The notes under the pieces are model-generated. The model made no database searches. It was not told where the DNA came from and saw only the letters and a list, made by a program, of their open reading frames with translations. The position numbers and the translations under genes are program-made. Positions 5,328 through 63,948 of a stretch of DNA of 64,000 bases are shown here, one piece after another. Within the stretch, counting starts at the first letter, position 1. Each line of letters begins with the position of its first letter. Origin of the DNA: Candidatus Tayloriibacteriota bacterium (GTDB lineage Bacteria > Patescibacteriota > Minisyncoccia > Phycocordibacterales > SIBU01); assembly GCA_009695005.1 (NCBI GenBank), contig SIBU01000002.1:7274-71273 (forward strand), given 5' to 3'.

Positions 5328-6218
5328 TTATTTGTAACGAGATAAAAGATAATTTTCTAAGGATTTTTTCCAGGAAATTGTTTCTAAATTGTCAGAGTGC
5401 GCAAGGACAGTGCAAGTCGGACGTTTAACAGAGTGGGTTTTTTTGAATGAACATTTTTTTATGAGTGAAGTGTCGAGCTTAAGAATTTTTGCGACTTCCT
5501 TTGCAATGTCGTATTTAGTTACACCTTGTTCTTTTTTTGAGGCGCCGATTTGATAGATTTTTGTCGTATTAGGTTTTTTTTCAGATATAAGTTTAAGGGC
5601 TACATTGACTATATCTTTTGTCCAAACAGGAATATTGAATTGGTCATTTATCGCTTCGAGTAATTGATTTTGCTTAAGTGTTTTGACAACCATATCGATA
5701 AAAGTGTCACGACCGTCTCCATACAACCAACCGGCGCGTAAAATATAAAAATTCTCTGAAAAGTTTTTTCCGATTTGCTGAACGATTTGTTCCCCACCAC
5801 ATTTTGACCAACCGTAGACGTTTACAGGTGTAGGTAAATCATTTTCCACATACTTTTTCTTACTTCCACCGAAAATGTCGGAAGTACTGATTTGAATAAG
5901 TTTTGTGTCGGTAAGGTTGGATTCCTTGATTACCTCCGCGATGATCCCAGCTCCAATGGTATTGACGTTCCATGCGGTAAGCGGGTTTTTTTCACAGAAA
6001 TCTACATTTACCACAACCGCACAGTTTACTACGGCGTTGGGGCGATTTTCTGAAATTATTTTAGTGACTACTGTTTTGTCAGTTATGTCAGCGGATTCTT
6101 TGGAGTAAGCAATAATTTCCAAACCATTAGGTTTTCCAGATAAAGAAGCGAATTCTTTTCCAAGTAAACCATTTGAACCAAAGACAACAATTTTATTGTT
6201 AGTTTTTCTTGTAGTCAT
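5328..6218 (-). CDS. RmlD-like NAD(P)H-dependent NDP-4-keto-sugar reductase
   Basis: N-terminal Rossmann motif (KIVVFGSNGLLG). Has STSDIFGG (compare RmlD STDYVFDG) and YGWSK (YxxxK). ATG at 6216-6218. Confidence 0.5.
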   Translation of the reverse strand: MTTRKTNNKIVVFGSNGLLGKEFASLSGKPNGLEIIAYSKESADITDKTVVTKIISENRPNAVVNCAVVVNVDFCEKNPLTAWNVNTIGAGIIAEVIKESNLTDTKLIQISTSDIFGGSKKKYVENDLPTPVNVYGWSKCGGEQIVQQIGKNFSENFYILRAGWLYGDGRDTFIDMVVKTLKQNQLLEAINDQFNIPVWTKDIVNVALKLISEKKPNTTKIYQIGASKKEQGVTKYDIAKEVAKILKLDTSLIKKCSFKKTHSVKRPTCTVLAHSDNLETISWKKSLENYLLSRYK

Positions 6219-7389
6219 GGGAGAAGATGGATATTAGAATTTTTATATCTGAGTTCGACAGGTCGGGGTTATTTCCAAAATAAATTCCTTGTTCGTGGAT
6301 TAAAGAGGAAGTGGAATTTATAATTTGTGAACCTTTCATATATTTTTTAAAAAAAGGCTGTTTAGTCATGTCGCCACCAACTATTGGACGAATTTCCACT
6401 TTTTTATTGCAGGCTTCGATTATGGAGTCGCGGATTTCCTTTGTCTTGCAGATGATAGGGAAGGCGAAATTGGAAATAACATCTAAATGGTTAGATTGAA
6501 TTGGATAATATAAGTCAGTGCGTGTGTAGATTGCCTCAGCAAATTTTTTGAAATTACTTTCGCGTTTCTTGACGATAGTGTTTAAGTGGGAGAGTTGAGC
6601 GTTTCCAAGAAAGCCGGATATCTCGGTGGGCCTTAGGTTGTAACCTAGATCGTAAAATGTGTATTTTGCGTAAAGGGAGTCTGACACGCCAAATTCTTTT
6701 CTTATTTTTTTCTGTCCATCCTCTCCTAGGTTGCGGTCCCAGCCGTGGGCGCGGACAATTTTAAGCATTCGTGCTAACTTTGGATCGTCTGTGCAAACGG
6801 CGCCACCTTCAATTGTTGAGAGGTGGTGGGCAGCAAAAAAAGAAAAAGTGCTGGCAAGACCAAAGTTTCCAAGTTTTTTTCCTTTATAAACTGTACCAAG
6901 TGCCTCACAAGTATCCTCGAGAATCAAAATGTTCTTTTCTTTGCAGTAGGATTGAATTTTTTCCATATCGCCGCAAAAACCTAGAAGGTGAGTAATGAAA
7001 AGAACTCTGATAGGATTTTTTTCTGTTGCACTTTTGAAAGTTCTTGATGAAACGTTGAGGGTTTCGATTTCTACGTCAACAGGTATAGCCTTGAGACCAA
7101 GTTCAATAATCGGCATAACATTTGTCGCCCAAGTTAGTGCAGAAAAAGCTACTGAGTCTCCACGTTTTATAGTGCCAAGATTTAAAAGGGTTTGAAGAAT
7201 TGCTAGATTAGCAGAGCTTCCGCTGTTAAAAAAAACAGCATGCTTTCTGTTTTGCCATAATGCAAAAGAGTTTTCAAATTTTTCGCACTCCTTTCCGAAA
7301 CTTAGGGCGTCTGTTTTTTCTATGAAACGACAAAGTTTCTTTTTTGTGCCCTTTTCCTTGAAGAATACATTTTTGACAAGTGGTATCAT
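6199..7389 (-). CDS. PLP-dependent sugar 3-dehydratase, ColD/E1-like (DegT/DnrJ/EryC1 fold with His replacing catalytic Lys)
   Basis: DegT-family core (SGSSANLAIL ... FSFFAAHHLSTIEGGAV ... RAHGWDRN). The Schiff-base position is His (FFAAHH), as in ColD and E1 dehydratases. RAHGW is a ColD-type motif. ORF start at 7413 is TTG; the first ATG (MIPLVKN..) is at 7387-7389. Confidence 0.55.
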   Translation of the reverse strand: MIPLVKNVFFKEKGTKKKLCRFIEKTDALSFGKECEKFENSFALWQNRKHAVFFNSGSSANLAILQTLLNLGTIKRGDSVAFSALTWATNVMPIIELGLKAIPVDVEIETLNVSSRTFKSATEKNPIRVLFITHLLGFCGDMEKIQSYCKEKNILILEDTCEALGTVYKGKKLGNFGLASTFSFFAAHHLSTIEGGAVCTDDPKLARMLKIVRAHGWDRNLGEDGQKKIRKEFGVSDSLYAKYTFYDLGYNLRPTEISGFLGNAQLSHLNTIVKKRESNFKKFAEAIYTRTDLYYPIQSNHLDVISNFAFPIICKTKEIRDSIIEACNKKVEIRPIVGGDMTKQPFFKKYMKGSQIINSTSSLIHEQGIYFGNNPDLSNSDIKILISIFSHDYKKN

Positions 7390-56974: not shown

Positions 56975-57805
56975 ATGATATTTGTCTCAAATCTAAAAAA
57001 TAGTTTTTACAACCCTGTGTTTTATAGATCTTTGAAGGATAAGTCTCTGGGCTTTTCAATGAAATATTTTTTTTCATTTATAGTAATTTTGGCATTTATA
57101 GTCGCTTTTATTTTAGGAAGCGAGTTGGCTCCTCTATTTTCCGCGGAGAGTCTCAAAAAATTTGTAAGTTTTTATCCTAAGGAATTGTCACTTACCATCA
57201 AGAATGGGGTGGTTTCGAGCAATGTTTCGGAGCCGTATGTCCTCAAGGCGACATCTGTCAAAAAGGGCGAGCATAGTAATTATTTGGTAGTTGATACTAG
57301 TAGTGATTCATCTTTGGATACTTTTCGAAAATATGATACGGATGTTTTGATAGGACGAAATTTTATTGTTAGTGAAAAAGGGAAAAGTCAGATTCAAGTG
57401 ACTGATATCAGTCGTTTGCCTGATTTTACTTTTAATCAGGAATTATTGTTTCATTGGGCCGATGTCATAGGTAGTCATCATTTGGCGCTTTCGTTCGGCT
57501 TTTTCTTTATTCTATGGACTGCGTTTGTATTTTATTTTACTTTTAATTTGGTATGGTTGGCCGTTATGGCACTTATAGTTTTGTTGATTGGTAAGGTAAA
57601 GGCTGTTTCTTTGTCATATAGCCAGTCTTTAAAAATCACACTATTTGCTTCTACTTTGCCACTAATATTAAAATCAATTTTTGTTGTTGCTGCTATCTCT
57701 GCGCCATTTCCGCTATTTTTCAGTGTGCTGATTGTTGTTGTGGTTATTGCCAACATTAAAGCAGATGAGATTGAAATTTCTCATAATCCTTCTGAAGTTG
57801 CGTAA
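56975..57805 (+). CDS. Membrane protein of unknown function
   Basis: An N-terminal TM segment, then a soluble segment, then 3-4 C-terminal TM helices. No motif recognised. Confidence 0.4.
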   Translation: MIFVSNLKNSFYNPVFYRSLKDKSLGFSMKYFFSFIVILAFIVAFILGSELAPLFSAESLKKFVSFYPKELSLTIKNGVVSSNVSEPYVLKATSVKKGEHSNYLVVDTSSDSSLDTFRKYDTDVLIGRNFIVSEKGKSQIQVTDISRLPDFTFNQELLFHWADVIGSHHLALSFGFFFILWTAFVFYFTFNLVWLAVMALIVLLIGKVKAVSLSYSQSLKITLFASTLPLILKSIFVVAAISAPFPLFFSVLIVVVVIANIKADEIEISHNPSEVA

Positions 57806-57814
57806 AGCGTTTGG

Positions 57815-57846
57815 AAGAAAATTGAAAACGGCGCGCCTTGGCGCGC
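57815..57846. terminator. Strong GC-rich palindromic rho-independent terminator (bidirectional)
   Basis: aaaacggcgcgcc-ttg-ggcgcgccgtttt is a perfect 13-bp stem flanked by an A-run and a T-run. Lies between the membrane-protein gene and secA. Confidence 0.7.
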
Positions 57847-57890
57847 CGTTTTCGTCGAATACCTGTCAATTTGATGTTTTATGTTAATAT

Positions 57891-60395
57891 ATGACGATGC
57901 TTTTTACATTAAAAAAATTATTCGGAGATGGAAATGAGGCTAAAATAAAGGTTTTTTTACCGATAGTAGCAAAAATTAGCGCATTAGAAGCCTCAATTAA
58001 AGCTCTTTCTGACGATGCTTTAGCGGGCCGAACAAAATTTTTTAGAGAAGAATTGGCAGAAGGCAAGACTTTCGAGGATATTTTACCTGAGGCATTTGCT
58101 GTGGTTCGCGAGGCTTCAAGACGCACTTTGGGCCAGCGTCACTTTGATGTTCAACTTCTGGGTGGAATTATTTTACATAAAGGAAATATTGCAGAAATGA
58201 GAACTGGAGAAGGTAAAACTTTGGTGGCTACTTTGCCTGCCTATTTGAACGCTTTGGGTGGTAAGGGCGTTCATGTTGTAACCGTCAACGATTATCTTTC
58301 TCGCCGAGATGCTGCTTGGATGGGGCAGATTTATTCTTTTCTGGGATTGTCAGTTGGAATTGTTAATCATGAAAGTTCATTTATTTATGATCCAAAACAT
58401 ACAGAGGTAGATCAGGATCGGGATGAAGTAGGTTCATTTAAAGTGCACCACGAATTTTTGCGGCCGGTTAGCCGACGGGAGGCGTATCACGCGGATATTA
58501 CCTATGGTACCAACAATGAATTTGGATTTGATTATTTACGAGACAATATTTCGTATGAAGAAAGAGAACTGCGCCAGCGCGATTTTAATTTTGCCATCGT
58601 CGACGAGGTAGACTCGATTCTTATCGATGAGGCAAGAACACCTCTTATTATTTCTGCTGCCACAGTTGATTCTGAGGATCTTTATGCTACTTTTGCAAAA
58701 ATCGCCACCACTCTTAAACGAGATGTGGATTTTAAGGTAGATGAAAAGATGCACGCTATAACATTGACAGACAGTGGTATTGAAAAGGCTGAGCAAGAAC
58801 TTGGGGTGGACAATATATACACCGAAAAAGGAATGAAATATGTTCATCATTTAGAAACTGCAGTTAAGGCAAAAGCTCTCTATGAAAGAGATCGGTCTTA
58901 TGTGGTAAAGGAAGATCAGGTGATTATTGTGGATGAATTTACCGGCAGGCTTCAGCCTGGACGAAGATGGAGTGAGGGCTTGCATCAAGCTGTTGAGGCC
59001 AAGGAGGGGGTTGCGGTACAAAAGGAGTCCCGCACTATGGCTTCCATTACTTTCCAGAACTATTTCAGGCTTTACAAGAAGCTGTCTGGCATGACGGGTA
59101 CCGCTAAAACCTCATCTGAGGAATTTTACAAAGTTTACGGTACGGACACTTTGGTGGTACCGACAAACAAACCCATTAACCGTCGTGATGGTAATGATCA
59201 GATTTTTCAAACAGAAATAGGGAAATTTAAGGCTATAGCTCGAAAGGTAAAAGATTTGCACGCCAAAGGACAGCCGGTTTTAATAGGTACGGTTTCGATT
59301 GAAAAAAATGAATTACTGAGCGAATATCTAAAGAGTGAAGGCGTGCCACATGAAATTCTTAACGCTAAAAATCATGAACGTGAAGGTGAAATTATTGCTC
59401 AGGCCGGACGAAAAGGAGCTGTAACTATTGCCACTAACATGGCGGGTAGAGGTGTAGATATTAAGTTGGGCGGTAATCCATCAACCGACGTTATTTCGGA
59501 GGAAGTGAAAATTTGCGGTGGACTTTTTGTGCTTGGTACTGAAAGGCATGAGGCCAGGAGAATTGATAACCAACTTCGCGGTCGTTCCGGAAGACAAGGT
59601 GATCCTGGTTCAACACAGTTTTTTGTTTCGTTGGAGGATACTTTGATGCGTGTTTTTGCTTCGGACATGATTAAGAATATGATGGGTCGTTTCGGCATTC
59701 CGGAAGATCAGCCAATTGAGAATCGTCTTATTACTCGTTCTCTAGAAACAGCACAGACAAAAATTGAAGGTTTTAATTTTGACGCTCGCAAACATGTTTT
59801 GGAATACGATGATGTATTGAATCATCAACGCACGGTTATTTACGCCAGACGCCGAAAGATTTTACTTGGAACAGTTGAAGAAATTGAAGAAATTCTTTCT
59901 GACATGTCGGAAGGGGACGAAGAGGTGATTAAAATAATCGAGAGTAAAAGAAAAGAAGTGGGAGAGGATGAATTTTTCCGCAATCTTCGTCGTTTAATGC
60001 TTCAGGCCGTAGATACTTTTTGGATTGAACATCTAGAAATTATGGATTACATGAGAGGTTCAGTTAACCTTCGTGCTTACGGTCAGCGTGATCCGTTGGT
60101 GGAATATAAAAAAGAAGGATTGCGTCTCTTTAAGGAAATGGAAGCTGCCGCCTCAAGTCAGATTATTCGTCTTATTCCTGCAATTGCTTCAAATGTAGCT
60201 ATTTTTAAGGAAGAAAAACGTCGATTAGCAGAGGTGCATGAGCAAGCTCAAAGTATAGGTAGTGGTGATGTTGAATCGAACAAACAGCACAATGCTCATG
60301 ATGTGCCAGCAATTTCTTCAGCATCTAAGGTGGGTAGAAATGATATTTGTCCTTGTGGGTCAGGGAAGAAGTACAAGAAGTGTCATGGAGCATAA
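57891..60395 (+). CDS. secA: Preprotein translocase ATPase SecA
   Basis: N-terminus [21 protein letters not shown] motor motifs ([49 protein letters not shown]). C-terminal Zn finger [14 protein letters not shown]. 834 aa. Confidence 0.9.
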
Positions 60396-60560
60396 CAAGC
60401 TATGAGAATTTATGTAACCTCATCTTTTGGAGAAAGTAAGTAGTCGAGTATGCTGTAATAGAAGATATTTCTAATGGACTCAAAAAGCTTTGATTAGGAT
60501 ATGTTGTGAGTAAGTACTTTTTAGGTAGTAAAGAGTAAATTTCTCTCAAATAAAAATATT

Positions 60561-61022
60561 ATGCCGCACATACATGAAAAAATTGATTTTACTGTAGAAG
60601 TTTTTATTGTTCACAAGGACCGAGTACTTCTTCGGATGCATGACAAGTATAAGAAGTGGCTTTCGGTCGGCGGACATATTGAACTGTACGAGGATCCGAT
60701 AGAAGCTGCAGTCAGGGAGGTGAAGGAGGAAGTTGGGCTTGATATTGAGCTAGTCGGTAGTCAAAAAATCTTTGAGGGAGTTGACCACACAATAGAGCTT
60801 CTACCACCGATTGCCTTAAATAGAAATCGTGTATCTCCGACACACGAACATGTCACTTTTGTATATTTTGCCCGTACCGATAAAACGGAAATAAAGGCAC
60901 AATATGAAGATGATAAAAGTGAGGAATGCAGATGGTGTACTGAAAAAGATTTGTCGGAGATGGATCTTTGGCCAAACGTCAAGGCTTACGCATTGGAAGC
61001 GCTTCATCGCTTAGGAAAATAA
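60561..61022 (+). CDS. Nudix hydrolase
   Basis: GGHIELYEDPIEAAVREVKEEVGL is the canonical Nudix box GX5EX7REUXEEXGU. Confidence 0.7.
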   Translation: MPHIHEKIDFTVEVFIVHKDRVLLRMHDKYKKWLSVGGHIELYEDPIEAAVREVKEEVGLDIELVGSQKIFEGVDHTIELLPPIALNRNRVSPTHEHVTFVYFARTDKTEIKAQYEDDKSEECRWCTEKDLSEMDLWPNVKAYALEALHRLGK

Positions 61023-61028
61023 TCTTTT

Positions 61029-61661
61029 ATGCCAAAATCTGTTTGGGATACAATTTACAAAGATTATGAAAAAGACGGAAAGGCTTGGGCGAGTTTGAAA
61101 GACGGCATCCACCCGTTATTTATTAGTTTTCTTAAACAAAGTAAGTTCGGCAGGAAGTCGGTATTTGATTTGGGTTGTGGTAATGGGAAGTATTTAGAAT
61201 TTTTACAAAAAGTGGGTTTTGAGGTTTCGGGTATTGATTCTAGTCCAACTGCAATTAGAATGGCACAAAAGAGTTTGGGGAAAAATGTAAAACTTAAAAT
61301 TGCCGATATGTATCTATGTGAAATTCCTGAAGGTATTGATTTGATAATTTCCATTGCAGCAATCCAACATCACACTAAGCCAGCAATAGCAAAGCTTGTT
61401 TCAAGGGTATATAAATCTTTATCGTTAGAGGGAAATTTTTTTATCACTTTTCCACGTCTGAGTATGGCTAGCCGTTGGAATACTTTTAAAGATGCAAAAC
61501 AAATTGCTCCAGGCACGTTTGTCCCCATTCATGGTCCTGAAAAGGGATTGGTGCACAGTTTTTACGAAAAAGAAGAATTGGCAAAACTTTTCTCTAATTT
61601 CGAAAACGTCAAAATTATTAAAGACGACATGGGTAGGTGGGTAGTACAAGGGAAAAAATGA
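61029..61661 (+). CDS. Class I SAM-dependent methyltransferase
   Basis: VFDLGCGNGKYLEFL (motif I), VSGIDSS, and LIISIAAIQH. Confidence 0.6.
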   Translation: MPKSVWDTIYKDYEKDGKAWASLKDGIHPLFISFLKQSKFGRKSVFDLGCGNGKYLEFLQKVGFEVSGIDSSPTAIRMAQKSLGKNVKLKIADMYLCEIPEGIDLIISIAAIQHHTKPAIAKLVSRVYKSLSLEGNFFITFPRLSMASRWNTFKDAKQIAPGTFVPIHGPEKGLVHSFYEKEELAKLFSNFENVKIIKDDMGRWVVQGKK

Positions 61662-62239
61662 TTCATTCCAAAATTCTCAAGAATGTTGGAATAGACGTAA
61701 ATTATATGAATAATAAAAGTTACCAGATTGGTTCAGAAGTCACAGTGAAGGAGTCTCTGGTACAGGGAAAAGGAGTTTTTGCTTTGCGTGATTTTAAAAA
61801 GGATGAGCTGGTTTATGTTGTCCCAAGAGGAAGATTTGTTAAAAAAAGTGAGGTGAAAGGCCTATCAGAATATGAAAAAGAGCATTTGGACCGTGTGGAT
61901 GTAGACACTTATGAATTAATGCAGGAGCCCGCTTGCTTTATAAATCATTCCTGCGAGCCGAATATTATAGAAAAGTTAATGCCAAAGGGGATTGAGGGTT
62001 ATGCGTTTCGAAATATTAAAAATGGAGAGGAGGTCGGTGTTGATTATCGGGTACGAGGTTTTGATGATTGGAAAATGAATTGCAAGTGTGGATCAAAATT
62101 TTGCACGGGTATTGTAATTGGTAATTTTTTCACACTTTCTTTAAAACTTCAGAAAAAATATTTGCCGTTTGCTCCAAAGTTCATCCAAGAAGAATTTGAG
62201 AAAAAGAAAAAAGCGAGGTGTAAAACACCCCGCTTTTAA
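61658..62239 (+). CDS. SET-domain protein (putative protein-lysine methyltransferase) with post-SET Cys cluster
   Basis: GKGVFALRDFKKDELV is the SET N-terminus. FINHSCEPN is the NHSCxPN motif. GYAFRNIKNGEEVGVDY (compare ELTxDY). Post-SET region CKCGSKFC. ORF-track GTG at 61637; the ATG at 61658 gives an ATGA overlap with the MTase stop. Confidence 0.6.
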   Translation: MIHSKILKNVGIDVNYMNNKSYQIGSEVTVKESLVQGKGVFALRDFKKDELVYVVPRGRFVKKSEVKGLSEYEKEHLDRVDVDTYELMQEPACFINHSCEPNIIEKLMPKGIEGYAFRNIKNGEEVGVDYRVRGFDDWKMNCKCGSKFCTGIVIGNFFTLSLKLQKKYLPFAPKFIQEEFEKKKKARCKTPRF

Positions 62240-62241
62240 GG

Positions 62242-63948
62242 TCATTCGATTTCTAGGTCTTGATCATCTGCCATTCTCCTGAATGTTGGCGATATGTCAT
62301 GAAGTTCGCGAAACGAATTTGCTATCGCTTCGATTTTTCCTCCAGAAAGAACAACAATCTTGTTAGCTCTCCTAACCGTCGATAGTCGGTGAGCGATGAC
62401 AAGTGTTCCAACTCCCTTGAGCAGTTCATCCAGACCAACCAATACCGCTTTTTCGGTAGTGGAGTCAAGCGAACTTGTGGCTTCGTCAATAATCATGAAT
62501 CGCGGTTTTTTTAGTACCGCCGCTCCGATCATCAAACGCTGTGCTTGTCCGCCGGAGAGTTTCACCCCGTCGCGTCCGACCACGATGTCGAGCGGATTTT
62601 CCCCAATCGGTCGTTTGCCGAAATCAATACAAAGTTTATTGAGTAGTGTTTTCAGATCCGATTCCGTGTTTCTGGTCGTTAACTCTTCCTTCGTGAGTCC
62701 ATATAAAAGATTGTCTTTTACAGTACCGTCAAGGATTTGTGAGTGTTGAGGAATGTATCCTACAGCTTTCATCCAGGAACTAGTTTTGATATCCCGAAGG
62801 TTTTGACCATTGATCGTAATGTTTCCTTCATCTGGATCCATGAAGCGCATAGCCAGGGCTTCGAGGGTGGATTTACCCGATCCCGAAGGTCCGACCAGTG
62901 CTACAATTTCTCCGAAGCCTACCTCAAAACTTACTTCTCGAAGAACAGGTTCTCCTTTTGGATAGGAATGAGATATTTTATTGAAGGCTAGTTTTACTCC
63001 GCCGTTTAGTATAAGTGCTTTTGCATTTTTACTCTCGATTACATTTGTCGGTTTTTCGAGAATATTCATGATTGCCTTAAGTTTCGGCATGTGCCTTCGC
63101 ATTTCTCGCTCAAGCCAGCCTAAACGTTCCAAGTTACCTCGAACAACTGAACTCCAAATCCAAATTGGAAATAAAATTCCGAATTCTTTACCTGAAGTTT
63201 TTGAAGTAAGGATTGAATAAGTGATTAACGCGAATACTGCAATTGTCCAAAGTGATGTAAGACTTTCTCTTAATGTTGAAGAAGCATTTTCCCACAACCA
63301 AAAGTCTCGATCTCGTTCACAAAGCAGTTTCTGCTGAGCTTTGATAGTTTCAATTTCCTCATCTTTTTTTGCTGAGGTTGAAACCCTTTCGACATTTTGC
63401 CAACGTGCGGCAATATATCGGTCTAGCGCTCGAAAATCATCATCTAGCGCCGCGCATTCCACTTCAAGTCGCCAATTGTTATAGGCACTCCAAAGAATGT
63501 GAATGATGACAATGGTAATCATGGCTAGCCCCGCCTTAGGATAGAGCAAGGTTAAATACACAAGAGCCATTGTCAGAAGACAAATCACTTCGAAAGTATC
63601 CGTAGACTTGTTTGTAAGAAGATCTTGGGCGCTTTCTCTGGATCGCCCTAAGCTTTCGTGATTTAAGTCCTTTTCTTCACGGTGCTGGTTTTGAGATTTC
63701 CCAAAAAATCTTTCTGTTATACCGACAACTATAGATACTTTGTTCATCCCCCAAATCCACTCATGTGCTCTGGTTGACTGCCATCTCATTACTCGGCCAA
63801 ATAGCTCAAGACTGATTAGTATTAGAAAAAGATAAATAATTCTTTCTCTTTTACCTCCAGTTACATCTGCTATCAGAACGCCTACGATTCCTGGTTCAGC
63901 AAGACTGGCCGCCATCATAAGAAGGATTGTAACGTATCTCCATGCCAT
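62242..63948 (-). CDS. ABC exporter, fused transmembrane/ATP-binding (MsbA-like type I exporter)
   Basis: An N-terminal 6-TM domain. NBD with Walker A GPSGSGKST, signature LSGGQAQR, and Walker B MIIDEATSSLD. Confidence 0.7.
   Translation of the reverse strand: MAWRYVTILLMMAASLAEPGIVGVLIADVTGGKRERIIYLFLILISLELFGRVMRWQSTRAHEWIWGMNKVSIVVGITERFFGKSQNQHREEKDLNHESLGRSRESAQDLLTNKSTDTFEVICLLTMALVYLTLLYPKAGLAMITIVIIHILWSAYNNWRLEVECAALDDDFRALDRYIAARWQNVERVSTSAKKDEEIETIKAQQKLLCERDRDFWLWENASSTLRESLTSLWTIAVFALITYSILTSKTSGKEFGILFPIWIWSSVVRGNLERLGWLEREMRRHMPKLKAIMNILEKPTNVIESKNAKALILNGGVKLAFNKISHSYPKGEPVLREVSFEVGFGEIVALVGPSGSGKSTLEALAMRFMDPDEGNITINGQNLRDIKTSSWMKAVGYIPQHSQILDGTVKDNLLYGLTKEELTTRNTESDLKTLLNKLCIDFGKRPIGENPLDIVVGRDGVKLSGGQAQRLMIGAAVLKKPRFMIIDEATSSLDSTTEKAVLVGLDELLKGVGTLVIAHRLSTVRRANKIVVLSGGKIEAIANSFRELHDISPTFRRMADDQDLEIE

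Follow-up and report, generated by a model that had tools for sequence, protein, structure and literature searches.

A SET-domain methyltransferase gene in a variable slot behind secA in a Taylorbacteria genome

The eukaryotic lysine methyltransferases of the MLL/SET1 and NSD/ASH1L/SETD2 type (PDB 2w5z, 4z4p, 6kqq) are the closest described counterparts of the protein considered here, and small single-domain SET enzymes are also found in prokaryotic and viral genomes, among them Methanosarcina mazei Go1-SET, whose substrate is MC1-alpha, chlamydial SET/NUE, Bacillus anthracis BaSET, Legionella RomA/LegAS4 and PBCV-1 vSET. Some of the prokaryotic enzymes, archaeal and chlamydial, methylate endogenous nucleoid proteins (PMC3980110). 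The SET-domain gene analysed in this work lies in a 64,000-nucleotide stretch of contig SIBU01000002.1 (hereafter, the window; G+C 38.5%), where it is the last of three co-directional genes that follow secA and encode a Nudix hydrolase, a class I methyltransferase (MTase) dependent on S-adenosylmethionine (SAM) and the SET protein. The contig comes from the Taylorbacteria, which fall within Paceibacteria and are part of the candidate phyla radiation (CPR). Each of the three proteins matched, at 100% identity, a protein annotated in a Candidatus Taylorbacteria metagenome-assembled genome. The reading that we favour, with moderate confidence, is that these are three real, intact and functionally independent small enzyme genes that occupy an accessory slot of variable content directly 3' of secA, the genome being a streamlined one.

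With the MLL/NSD-type enzymes the window SET protein shares the core fold, the GxG and NHSCxPN motifs, the catalytic tyrosine in (E)LxxDY and the post-SET CxCx4C cluster, at 25-30% identity in Foldseek alignments. It differs from them in being a stand-alone protein of ~177-193 aa, devoid of AWS, pre-SET and partner-binding regions, and in bearing a two-helix extension that those enzymes do not have. Because the host has no histones, its substrate must also differ from theirs. The likeness to the prokaryotic and viral enzymes is that of small single-domain proteins; Go1-SET, NUE, BaSET and RomA were set beside the window protein by description, and PBCV-1 vSET (3kma) gave a TM score of 0.85, normalised to the target, against its model. 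Unlike the prokaryotic SET effectors, the window protein has neither a secretion signal nor an effector context, and a host-chromatin effector role is unsupported in a free-living or episymbiotic groundwater CPR bacterium. Three enzyme genes of known families packed by genome compaction are an ordinary finding. The comparison also documents a widespread prokaryotic family of long-form SET proteins (SET, post-SET and two-helix tail) that includes CPR bacteria, and CPR hosts, having neither histones nor a eukaryotic host, offer a clean setting in which to look for the endogenous substrate of a bacterial SET enzyme.

Gene content behind secA in the window and in relatives

All three open reading frames (ORFs) were intact on the + strand between 60561 and 62239, as the first-pass annotation had placed them. 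Its domain calls (Nudix, class I MTase, SET) also held, since the Pfam scores were all well over the gathering cut-offs (PF00856, 56 bits against 22.4, E = 5.8e-15; PF00293, 60 bits against 21.1) and the motifs were legible in the translations. The same annotation had seen in the trio a fixed association, acting as a modification or signalling module, and this did not survive comparison with relatives, in which the genes are not co-conserved. SET loci (designated by L numbers) were gathered in three ways, by exact-protein look-ups, from 80 GTDB species-representative genomes and from 80 metagenome contigs. Among those collected, L011 alone shared the Nudix-MTase-SET trio with the window; its SET protein is 78% identical to that of the window and its genes run secA-DUF559-Nudix-MTase-SET-ABC. 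Each of the following loci lacked it. In L177 (SET 79% identical), which has no Nudix gene, the order is DUF559-MTase-SET and then an ArsR-like helix-turn-helix regulator, while in L008 (80%) a 142-aa gene resembling nucleotidyltransferases (NTase-like) stands between secA and SET, and in the Kaiserbacteria locus L001 (73%) SET comes directly after secA and is followed by the convergent ABC gene. L004 (56%) has secA, a MazG-like gene, SET and an unknown gene; L009 (57%), HD-Nudix-x-Nudix-HD-SET-cupin; L016 (45%), secA-DUF3850/ASCH-SET-DUF4406-Nudix-secD; and L017 (41%), secA, a HAD-like gene, Nudix and SET. The DUF559 gene (Vsr-like endonuclease fold; L011:4611-4970 and L177:34-390) is not in the window, and its presence or absence further indicates a slot in which single genes come and go. 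In relatives the slot holds other combinations of small genes of the Nudix, MazG-like, HD, HAD-like, Maf, DUF4406, NTase-like, DUF559 and DUF3850 kinds, and this varied content leads us to read the tight packing as the outcome of genome compaction and serial insertion behind secA, with no dedicated pathway.

The database entries for L011 (CAYHDB010000036.1) and L016 (CAZMJP010000009.1) bear the titles 'uncultured Candidatus Saccharibacteria' and 'uncultured Gammaproteobacteria', respectively. Their secA-SET synteny, together with L011 proteins that are 78-96% identical to those of the window, points to Paceibacteria, and the titles are probably binning or labelling errors.

Across ~165 loci no fixed SET neighbour family was found. 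When neighbour families were tallied over ~83 upstream and 81 downstream positions of distinct SET loci, no Pfam family occupied more than 3 positions on either side, NUDIX and Methyltransf_25 each accounting for 2 upstream. What does persist is the link of secA and then SET, SET being the most persistent occupant of the slot: a SEC-C-coding gene (secA) stands 0-2 genes 5' of SET in the window, L001, L004, L008, L011, L016 and L017, over SET identities of 41-100%. The secA orthologues of L001, L004, L011, L016 and L017 each matched at E = 0 and carried the SecA Pfam domains. The outer neighbours have orthologues as well, the DUF1189-like gene in L001 (E = 1.6e-78, with PF06691) and L011 (E = 6.4e-78), and the ABC transporter in L001 (E = 8.7e-284) and L011 (E = 3.5e-118), syntenic in both.

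In the favoured reading, secA, nudix, MTase and SET would form one transcription unit with two hairpins (57824-57853 and 62209-62237) as its bounds. The Nudix enzyme would hydrolyse a nucleoside-diphosphate-X compound, most likely in a housekeeping or 'house-cleaning' role, and the MTase would methylate some small molecule or RNA. The SET protein would bind SAM through its GxG and NHSC motifs and, by means of Tyr130 and a zinc-held post-SET lid (C99, C142, C144, C149), methylate the lysine epsilon-amino group of an endogenous, probably abundant basic protein. Several points weigh against this account. Its substrates are all predicted, that of SET from the family to which it belongs. Co-transcription, though likely, is deduced from the layout: the trio may be transcribed with secA, given that two strong hairpins bracket secA to SET and that the spacer behind secA holds no terminator. 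Insertion of gene cassettes at this locus is extrapolated from relatives in which the end of a SEC-C-coding gene is repeated, and no such repeats were detected in the window (no copy at >= 66% identity; best local score 23, equal to the null 95th percentile). A scan of 165 distinct SET loci with a Nudix hidden Markov model placed 9 of 13 Nudix ORFs within 1.5 kb of SET, a zone holding 35% of the sequence (one-sided binomial p = 0.013). Fusions of single, long-form SET domains to Nudix (P0233), HIT (P0367) and HAD (P0235) domains exist. Finally, a distant bacterium, whose SET protein is 36% identical (L018:4605-8215; JBARXB010000040.1, a metagenome-assembled genome), has MTase, Nudix, SET, MTase and HNH-like genes tightly packed in one direction, the successive gaps being 37, 12, 3 and 19 nt. 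The enrichment, the fusions and this cluster allow a facultative link of SET to a nucleotide or phosphoester hydrolase.

Such a link could mean that SET and an interchangeable hydrolase (Nudix in the window, and elsewhere HIT, HAD, MazG or HD) work on a common target, with a second MTase possibly taking part. The target might be a molecule that is capped or linked to a nucleotide, or else a modified protein bearing an adduct for the hydrolase to remove. Besides the statistical enrichment, this explanation draws on Nudix genes no more than two genes from SET in the window, L009, L011, L016, L017, L018 and L021, on MazG-like, HD and HAD-like genes that adjoin SET in L004, L009 and L017, and on the closely spaced MTase-Nudix-SET-MTase order of L018. 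Even so, we regard it as unlikely, although it is the main alternative to the favoured reading. The enrichment is weak and facultative, Nudix genes being near only ~5% of SET loci, and the partner genes are non-orthologous between lineages, as the Nudix and MTase proteins of L018 resemble those of the window at motif level only. L001 and L008, with SET proteins 73-80% identical, have no hydrolase neighbour. Among the 150 best SET representatives, further fusion partners are unrelated (GNAT, P0361; HEPN/AbiU2, P0325; Mur ligase, P0227), and the fusions are singletons or doubletons (SET-HIT and SET-HAD, 2 sequences each), rare metagenome gene calls in which gene-calling artefacts are possible. 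Moreover, the same hydrolase types occur behind secA with no SET nearby, in L094, where an orthologue of the window Nudix (76% identical) is part of secA-Nudix-Maf-Nudix-Nudix-cytidylyltransferase (CTP_transf), and for this reason we read the proximity of SET and Nudix as mainly positional. Adjacency to an MTase was considered as a signal and dismissed, as it occurs in ~4 of 165 loci, about the chance level, one of the cases being the housekeeping KsgA (L019). Orthologues of the window MTase (L091 and L093; 60% and 53% identical) are neighbours of genes for ClpB and ribosomal proteins or follow two other Nudix genes, again with no SET nearby. The operon-like layout noted in the first-pass annotation is real as far as it concerns the window (co-directional genes, a 6-nt gap at the Nudix-MTase junction, no internal terminator), and fails for co-conservation and for linkage of the partner genes to SET elsewhere. 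The literature search returned no paper linking SET with Nudix neighbourhoods or SET with CPR biology.

The SET-HIT gene (L176:4001-4876) lies directly 3' of the rpsM-rpsK-rpsD-rpoA-rplQ cluster.

The SET protein: motifs, start codon and family

That the third gene encodes a SET domain was supported concordantly by the profile match, the AlphaFold2 model and Foldseek. The translation contains GKGVFA, NHSCEPN, GVDY and the post-SET cluster CKCGSKFC, and in an alignment with 20 homologues G37, G39, N96-H97-S98-C99, N102, D129, Y130, C142, C144 and C149 were invariant, so that the post-SET zinc cluster (CxCx4C plus the cysteine of NHSC) is complete with C99, C142, C144 and C149. The AlphaFold2 model had a mean predicted local distance difference test score (pLDDT) of 88.2 and a pTM of 0.79. 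Its 50 top Foldseek matches in the PDB were all SET domains, with probability 1.0 (MLL1, E = 2.4e-10), and the family profile retrieved from the PDB the SET domains of MLL, NSD, ASH1L and SETD2, with E values down to 7e-24. NCBIfam gave no match for the protein. Past the post-SET cluster the model places two helices (162-171 and 174-188) in a conserved C-terminal extension with the motif GNFFxLxxxLQKKYLPFAPKFIQEEY, which, on the alignment and the model, defines a 'long form' of the SET family; the tail that follows from the last codons (KKKKARCKTPRF), encoded by the hairpin at 62209-62237, is unconserved in homologues. Judged by its translation and predicted structure, the protein shows all the features of a lysine methyltransferase, and by analogy with described enzymes we propose that it methylates a lysine of an endogenous protein.

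The junction with the MTase gene had been annotated as an overlap of stop and start codons. The ATGA at 61658-61661 is present, as stated there, and its in-frame ATG is probably not the start of SET. In L011, the closest relative for which DNA is available, the junction (L011:5955-6003) is 90% identical to window positions 61658-61708, and a 2-bp indel puts the overlapping ATG out of frame and leads it to a stop, SET beginning at the equivalent of 61706. The close SET homologues all begin at the position equivalent to 61706 (MNNKSYQ...), and residues 1-18 of the 193-aa version had a pLDDT <50 and are predicted to be disordered. On these three grounds the SET start is probably ATG 61706 rather than ATG 61658, and the MTase-SET junction would therefore be a 44-nt spacer instead of a 4-nt overlap.

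The first-pass remark that bacterial SET proteins are uncommon proved overstated. With two peptide patterns only, the GTDB species representatives yielded at least 568 relatives, and 7,481 cluster representatives in a library of 1.8 billion proteins matched the SET family profile at E <= 1e-10. The window protein also has archaeal homologues at 44-45% identity, one of which belongs to a Methanosarcinales genome. A scan of metagenome contigs for SET orthologues yielded distant loci only, the best being 44% identical among the matches listed. The SET profile also matched proteins with 5-9 tandem SET-like stretches (P0224, 1449 aa; P0225, 1479 aa; P0230, 1415 aa); two-SET-domain proteins form a large class among the profile matches, and many family matches are 290-390 aa long.

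Not all SET domains act on proteins. BurB of Burkholderia thailandensis, a 172-aa SET-domain protein, is a methionine S-methyltransferase that turns methionine into S-methyl-methionine (9l4t, 9l4v; PMC12542666), and the window protein could likewise be a small-molecule methyltransferase instead of a protein-lysine one. The two proteins are similar in size and share the SET core. BurB matched the SET family profile over positions 71-139 (E = 3.9e-12), and 9l4v aligned over 165 columns, against ~140 for the histone methyltransferases, an alignment that probably includes the C-terminal region. The metabolic enzymes encoded next to SET would also suit a small-molecule role. We nevertheless hold a BurB-like activity to be improbable. 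BurB is only 19% identical and shows a root-mean-square deviation of 8.5 A, whereas the best matches, at 25-30% identity, are the MLL, NSD, ASH1L and SETD2 lysine methyltransferases, whose motifs the window SET keeps in full, the catalytic tyrosine and the complete post-SET zinc cluster being invariant. The SET-GNAT fusion points to protein lysines, and no genes of the dimethylsulfoniopropionate or malleicyprol pathways occur near the window SET.

Repeated ends of SEC-C-coding genes

The persistent position of SET behind secA was accompanied, in two distant lineages, by repeats of the 3' end of the SEC-C-coding gene. L017:4918-6403 (Paceibacterota, JAGOQP010000006.1) has the terminal 33-34 nt of secA (GGCAAGAAATATAAAAAGTGTCACGGAAAATAA) again at 5454-5477, 5500-5533, 5955-5988 and 6370-6403; the HAD-like, Nudix and SET genes are each closed by a copy, from which 1-6 nt lead to the next ATG. 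Three copies reached >= 66% identity, against 0 in 200 shuffles, and the local score was 48, against a null maximum of 28. In L098, from a high-GC non-CPR bacterium (metagenome contig Ga0247727_10010216), a 159-aa SEC-C protein that is not SecA (PF02810, 5.5e-08) ends 5 nt before SET. Here two direct repeats of 66 nt, ~90% identical (L098:5916-5983 and 6456-6521), flank SET and enclose its 393-nt gene (5989-6381, 130 aa) and 75 nt; they correspond to the 3' end of the upstream SEC-C gene, encoding ...(K/R)CCRKTMG, the second copy being an out-of-frame remnant, and their local-alignment score was 92, against a null maximum of 25. Borderline SEC-C remnants were present in L004 (score 25, 95th percentile 23) and in the SET tail of L016 (22 against 24). 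No significant repeats were detected in L001, L008, L011 or L094, and the pattern of the secA 3' end gave 1 match in the 64 kb of the window at <= 3 mismatches. A SEC-C tail was also considered as a feature of the SET family and discarded, as KK[YFW]K[KR]C[CH] occurred in 0 of 149 top representatives; the tail of the L017 SET protein is for that reason taken as a local, DNA-level event.

The N-terminal coding region of Nudix (window 60645-60658; L011:5095-5132) resembles the secA 3' end over 14-38 nt (DKYKKW, compared with GKKYKKC), with scores of 23 in the window and 25 in L011 against a maximum of 23 in 100 shuffles. This similarity is probably due to chance or to lysine-rich composition.

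The arrangement in L017 and L098 is what insertion into the end of a conserved gene, of the Campbell type or site-specific, would leave, and it suggests cassette insertion, which would account for the synteny of secA and SET as well as for the variable content of the slot. As in islands integrated at the 3' ends of tRNA and tmRNA genes and in integron arrays, these two loci, the only ones to which the comparison applies, have direct repeats of the target 3' end with the target ORF intact, and L017 further resembles integron cassette arrays in being a tandem array of three single-gene units. They differ from both in that the units are only 415-580 bp and that no integrase was found within 6-12 kb of sequence, and from integrons in that the repeats are zinc-motif coding sequence and not attC-like hairpins. 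SEC-C-flanked cassettes are undescribed as far as the literature was searched. A broader proposal, which we put forward as doubtful, is that the site 3' of the end of a SEC-C-coding gene (secA in Paceibacteria) is an undescribed hot spot into which single-gene cassettes (SET, Nudix, HAD-like and similar) recombine by way of the strongly conserved SEC-C-coding sequence, each event duplicating 33-66 nt of it, the window array being an old, eroded product and SET a recurrent cargo. The presence of such cassettes in two distant lineages is the one unexpected result of this work and, if general, it would amount to a new way for very small genomes to acquire gene cassettes.

A more speculative variant of the hot-spot proposal is that SET is kept at the slot by methylating the lysines of the SEC-C tail. 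The related idea that the substrate of SET is the lysine-rich SEC-C tail carried by SecA or by other SEC-C proteins, so that adjacency reflects co-expression of enzyme and substrate, agrees with secA standing close upstream of SET in the window and six relatives, with the non-SecA SEC-C gene of L098 and with the four lysines of the motif. We consider it very improbable, since repeats at the DNA level, out-of-frame and intergenic copies included, explain the adjacency by recombination, and since the cassettes of L017 other than SET (HAD-like, Nudix) bear the same repeats. In addition, no SEC-C gene lies near SET in ~155 of the 165 loci, and the literature search gave no paper on SEC-C and lysine methylation.

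Transcription features and the Nudix and MTase proteins

The features of the window around the slot are collected in Table 1. The hairpin upstream of secA is a perfect 13-bp palindrome (GAAAACGGCGCGCC/GGCGCGCCGTTTTC) with 9 GC pairs; its folding energy of -28.7 kcal/mol (z = -4.1) was matched by 0 of 200 shuffles, and it is likely to be a terminator or transcription-unit boundary. Rfam gave only sub-threshold matches for it, to unrelated enterobacterial small RNAs, which probably reflect a terminator-like shape alone. The hairpin in the last codons of SET (-19.7 kcal/mol, z = -3.1) precedes, on the minus strand, a run of T and is likely a bidirectional terminator. No terminator-like hairpin was found in the 165-nt secA-Nudix spacer (folding z = +0.3).

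Table 1 Features of the window from the DUF1189-like gene to the ABC transporter gene
Feature	Position	Strand	Remarks
DUF1189-like membrane protein gene	56975..57805	+	ORF; upstream syntenic neighbour of secA
GC-rich palindromic hairpin	57824..57853	.	Between the DUF1189-like gene and secA; 13-bp stem
secA	57891..60395	+	ORF, 834 aa; C-terminal end is a SEC-C zinc motif
SEC-C-motif-coding 3' end of secA	60363..60395	+	Single copy in the window
secA-Nudix spacer	60396..60560	+	165 nt; covered by folding, promoter and Rfam scans
Nudix hydrolase gene	60561..61022	+	153 aa; PF00293, 3.1e-16; complete Nudix box
Class I (Rossmann-fold) SAM-dependent MTase gene	61029..61661	+	210 aa; Methyltransf_25, 1.2e-13
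SET + post-SET methyltransferase gene	61658..62239	+	193 aa from ATG 61658; 177 aa from ATG 61706, the start supported by comparison
Hairpin in last SET codons	62209..62237	.	13-bp stem; stop codon of the convergent ABC gene 5 nt away
ABC transporter gene	62242..63948	-	ORF, 568 aa; permease and ATPase fused; PF00005; convergent to SET

Three kinds of candidate feature were tried and set aside. Sigma-70-like promoters before Nudix were not found, promoter-like counts being below the shuffle expectation, with a consensus that may not fit CPR bacteria. For riboswitches or leader RNAs in 57700-62400, the Rfam matches were all sub-threshold and none came near its gathering score. For an anti-phage defence system, the PADLOC matches were generic and at domain level only, with none for SET.

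The Nudix box of the window protein is complete (G-HIELY-E-DPIEAAV-RE-V-K-EE-V-G-L, GHIELYEDPIEAAVREVKEEVGL, corresponding to GX5EX7REUXEEXGU). At E <= 1e-10 the protein had 2,596 homologues, many of them 60-79% identical and spread across Patescibacteria, against 24 for the SET subfamily in the same kind of search. Its best solved relative is 3f6a, an uncharacterised Nudix protein (5e-24). With 3f6a and with house-cleaning Nudix enzymes such as MutT, NudB and RppH it shares the complete box, a length of ~150 aa and partial matches to the NudB and MutT models. It differs from the house-cleaning enzymes in that none of the NCBIfam equivalog cut-offs for named subfamilies (MutT, NudB, RppH, NudC and others) was reached, the best being NudB with 36.2 bits against 103, so that no substrate class is assigned.

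The MTase scored 51.9 bits against 27 with Methyltransf_25 and passed the cut-offs of four further MTase models, with weak matches to TehB and others; its motif I reads VFDLGCGNG. None of the named MTase equivalogs of NCBIfam was reached (BioC, 40.5 bits against 184.95; TehB, 38.1 against 303). Its homologues at E <= 1e-10 numbered 79, mostly from Patescibacteria, and its PDB matches were generic only.

Two further arrangements were seen around MTase orthologues. In P0048 (341 aa, Candidatus Pacebacteria) an NTase-like domain of ~130 aa lies N-terminal to an MTase orthologue that is 46% identical to the window MTase; the domain has no Pfam match and shows the signature G[SG]...D.D, and it is also found as the stand-alone gene between secA and SET in L008:816-1244. 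In L093:5030-6652 (GCA_004196315.1, SDBT01000152.1) a gene directly 3' of the MTase orthologue encodes a 540-aa protein with an N-terminal, guanidinoacetate N-methyltransferase-like Pfam match (PF27704), and Nudix, alpha/beta-hydrolase and Nudix genes lie upstream.

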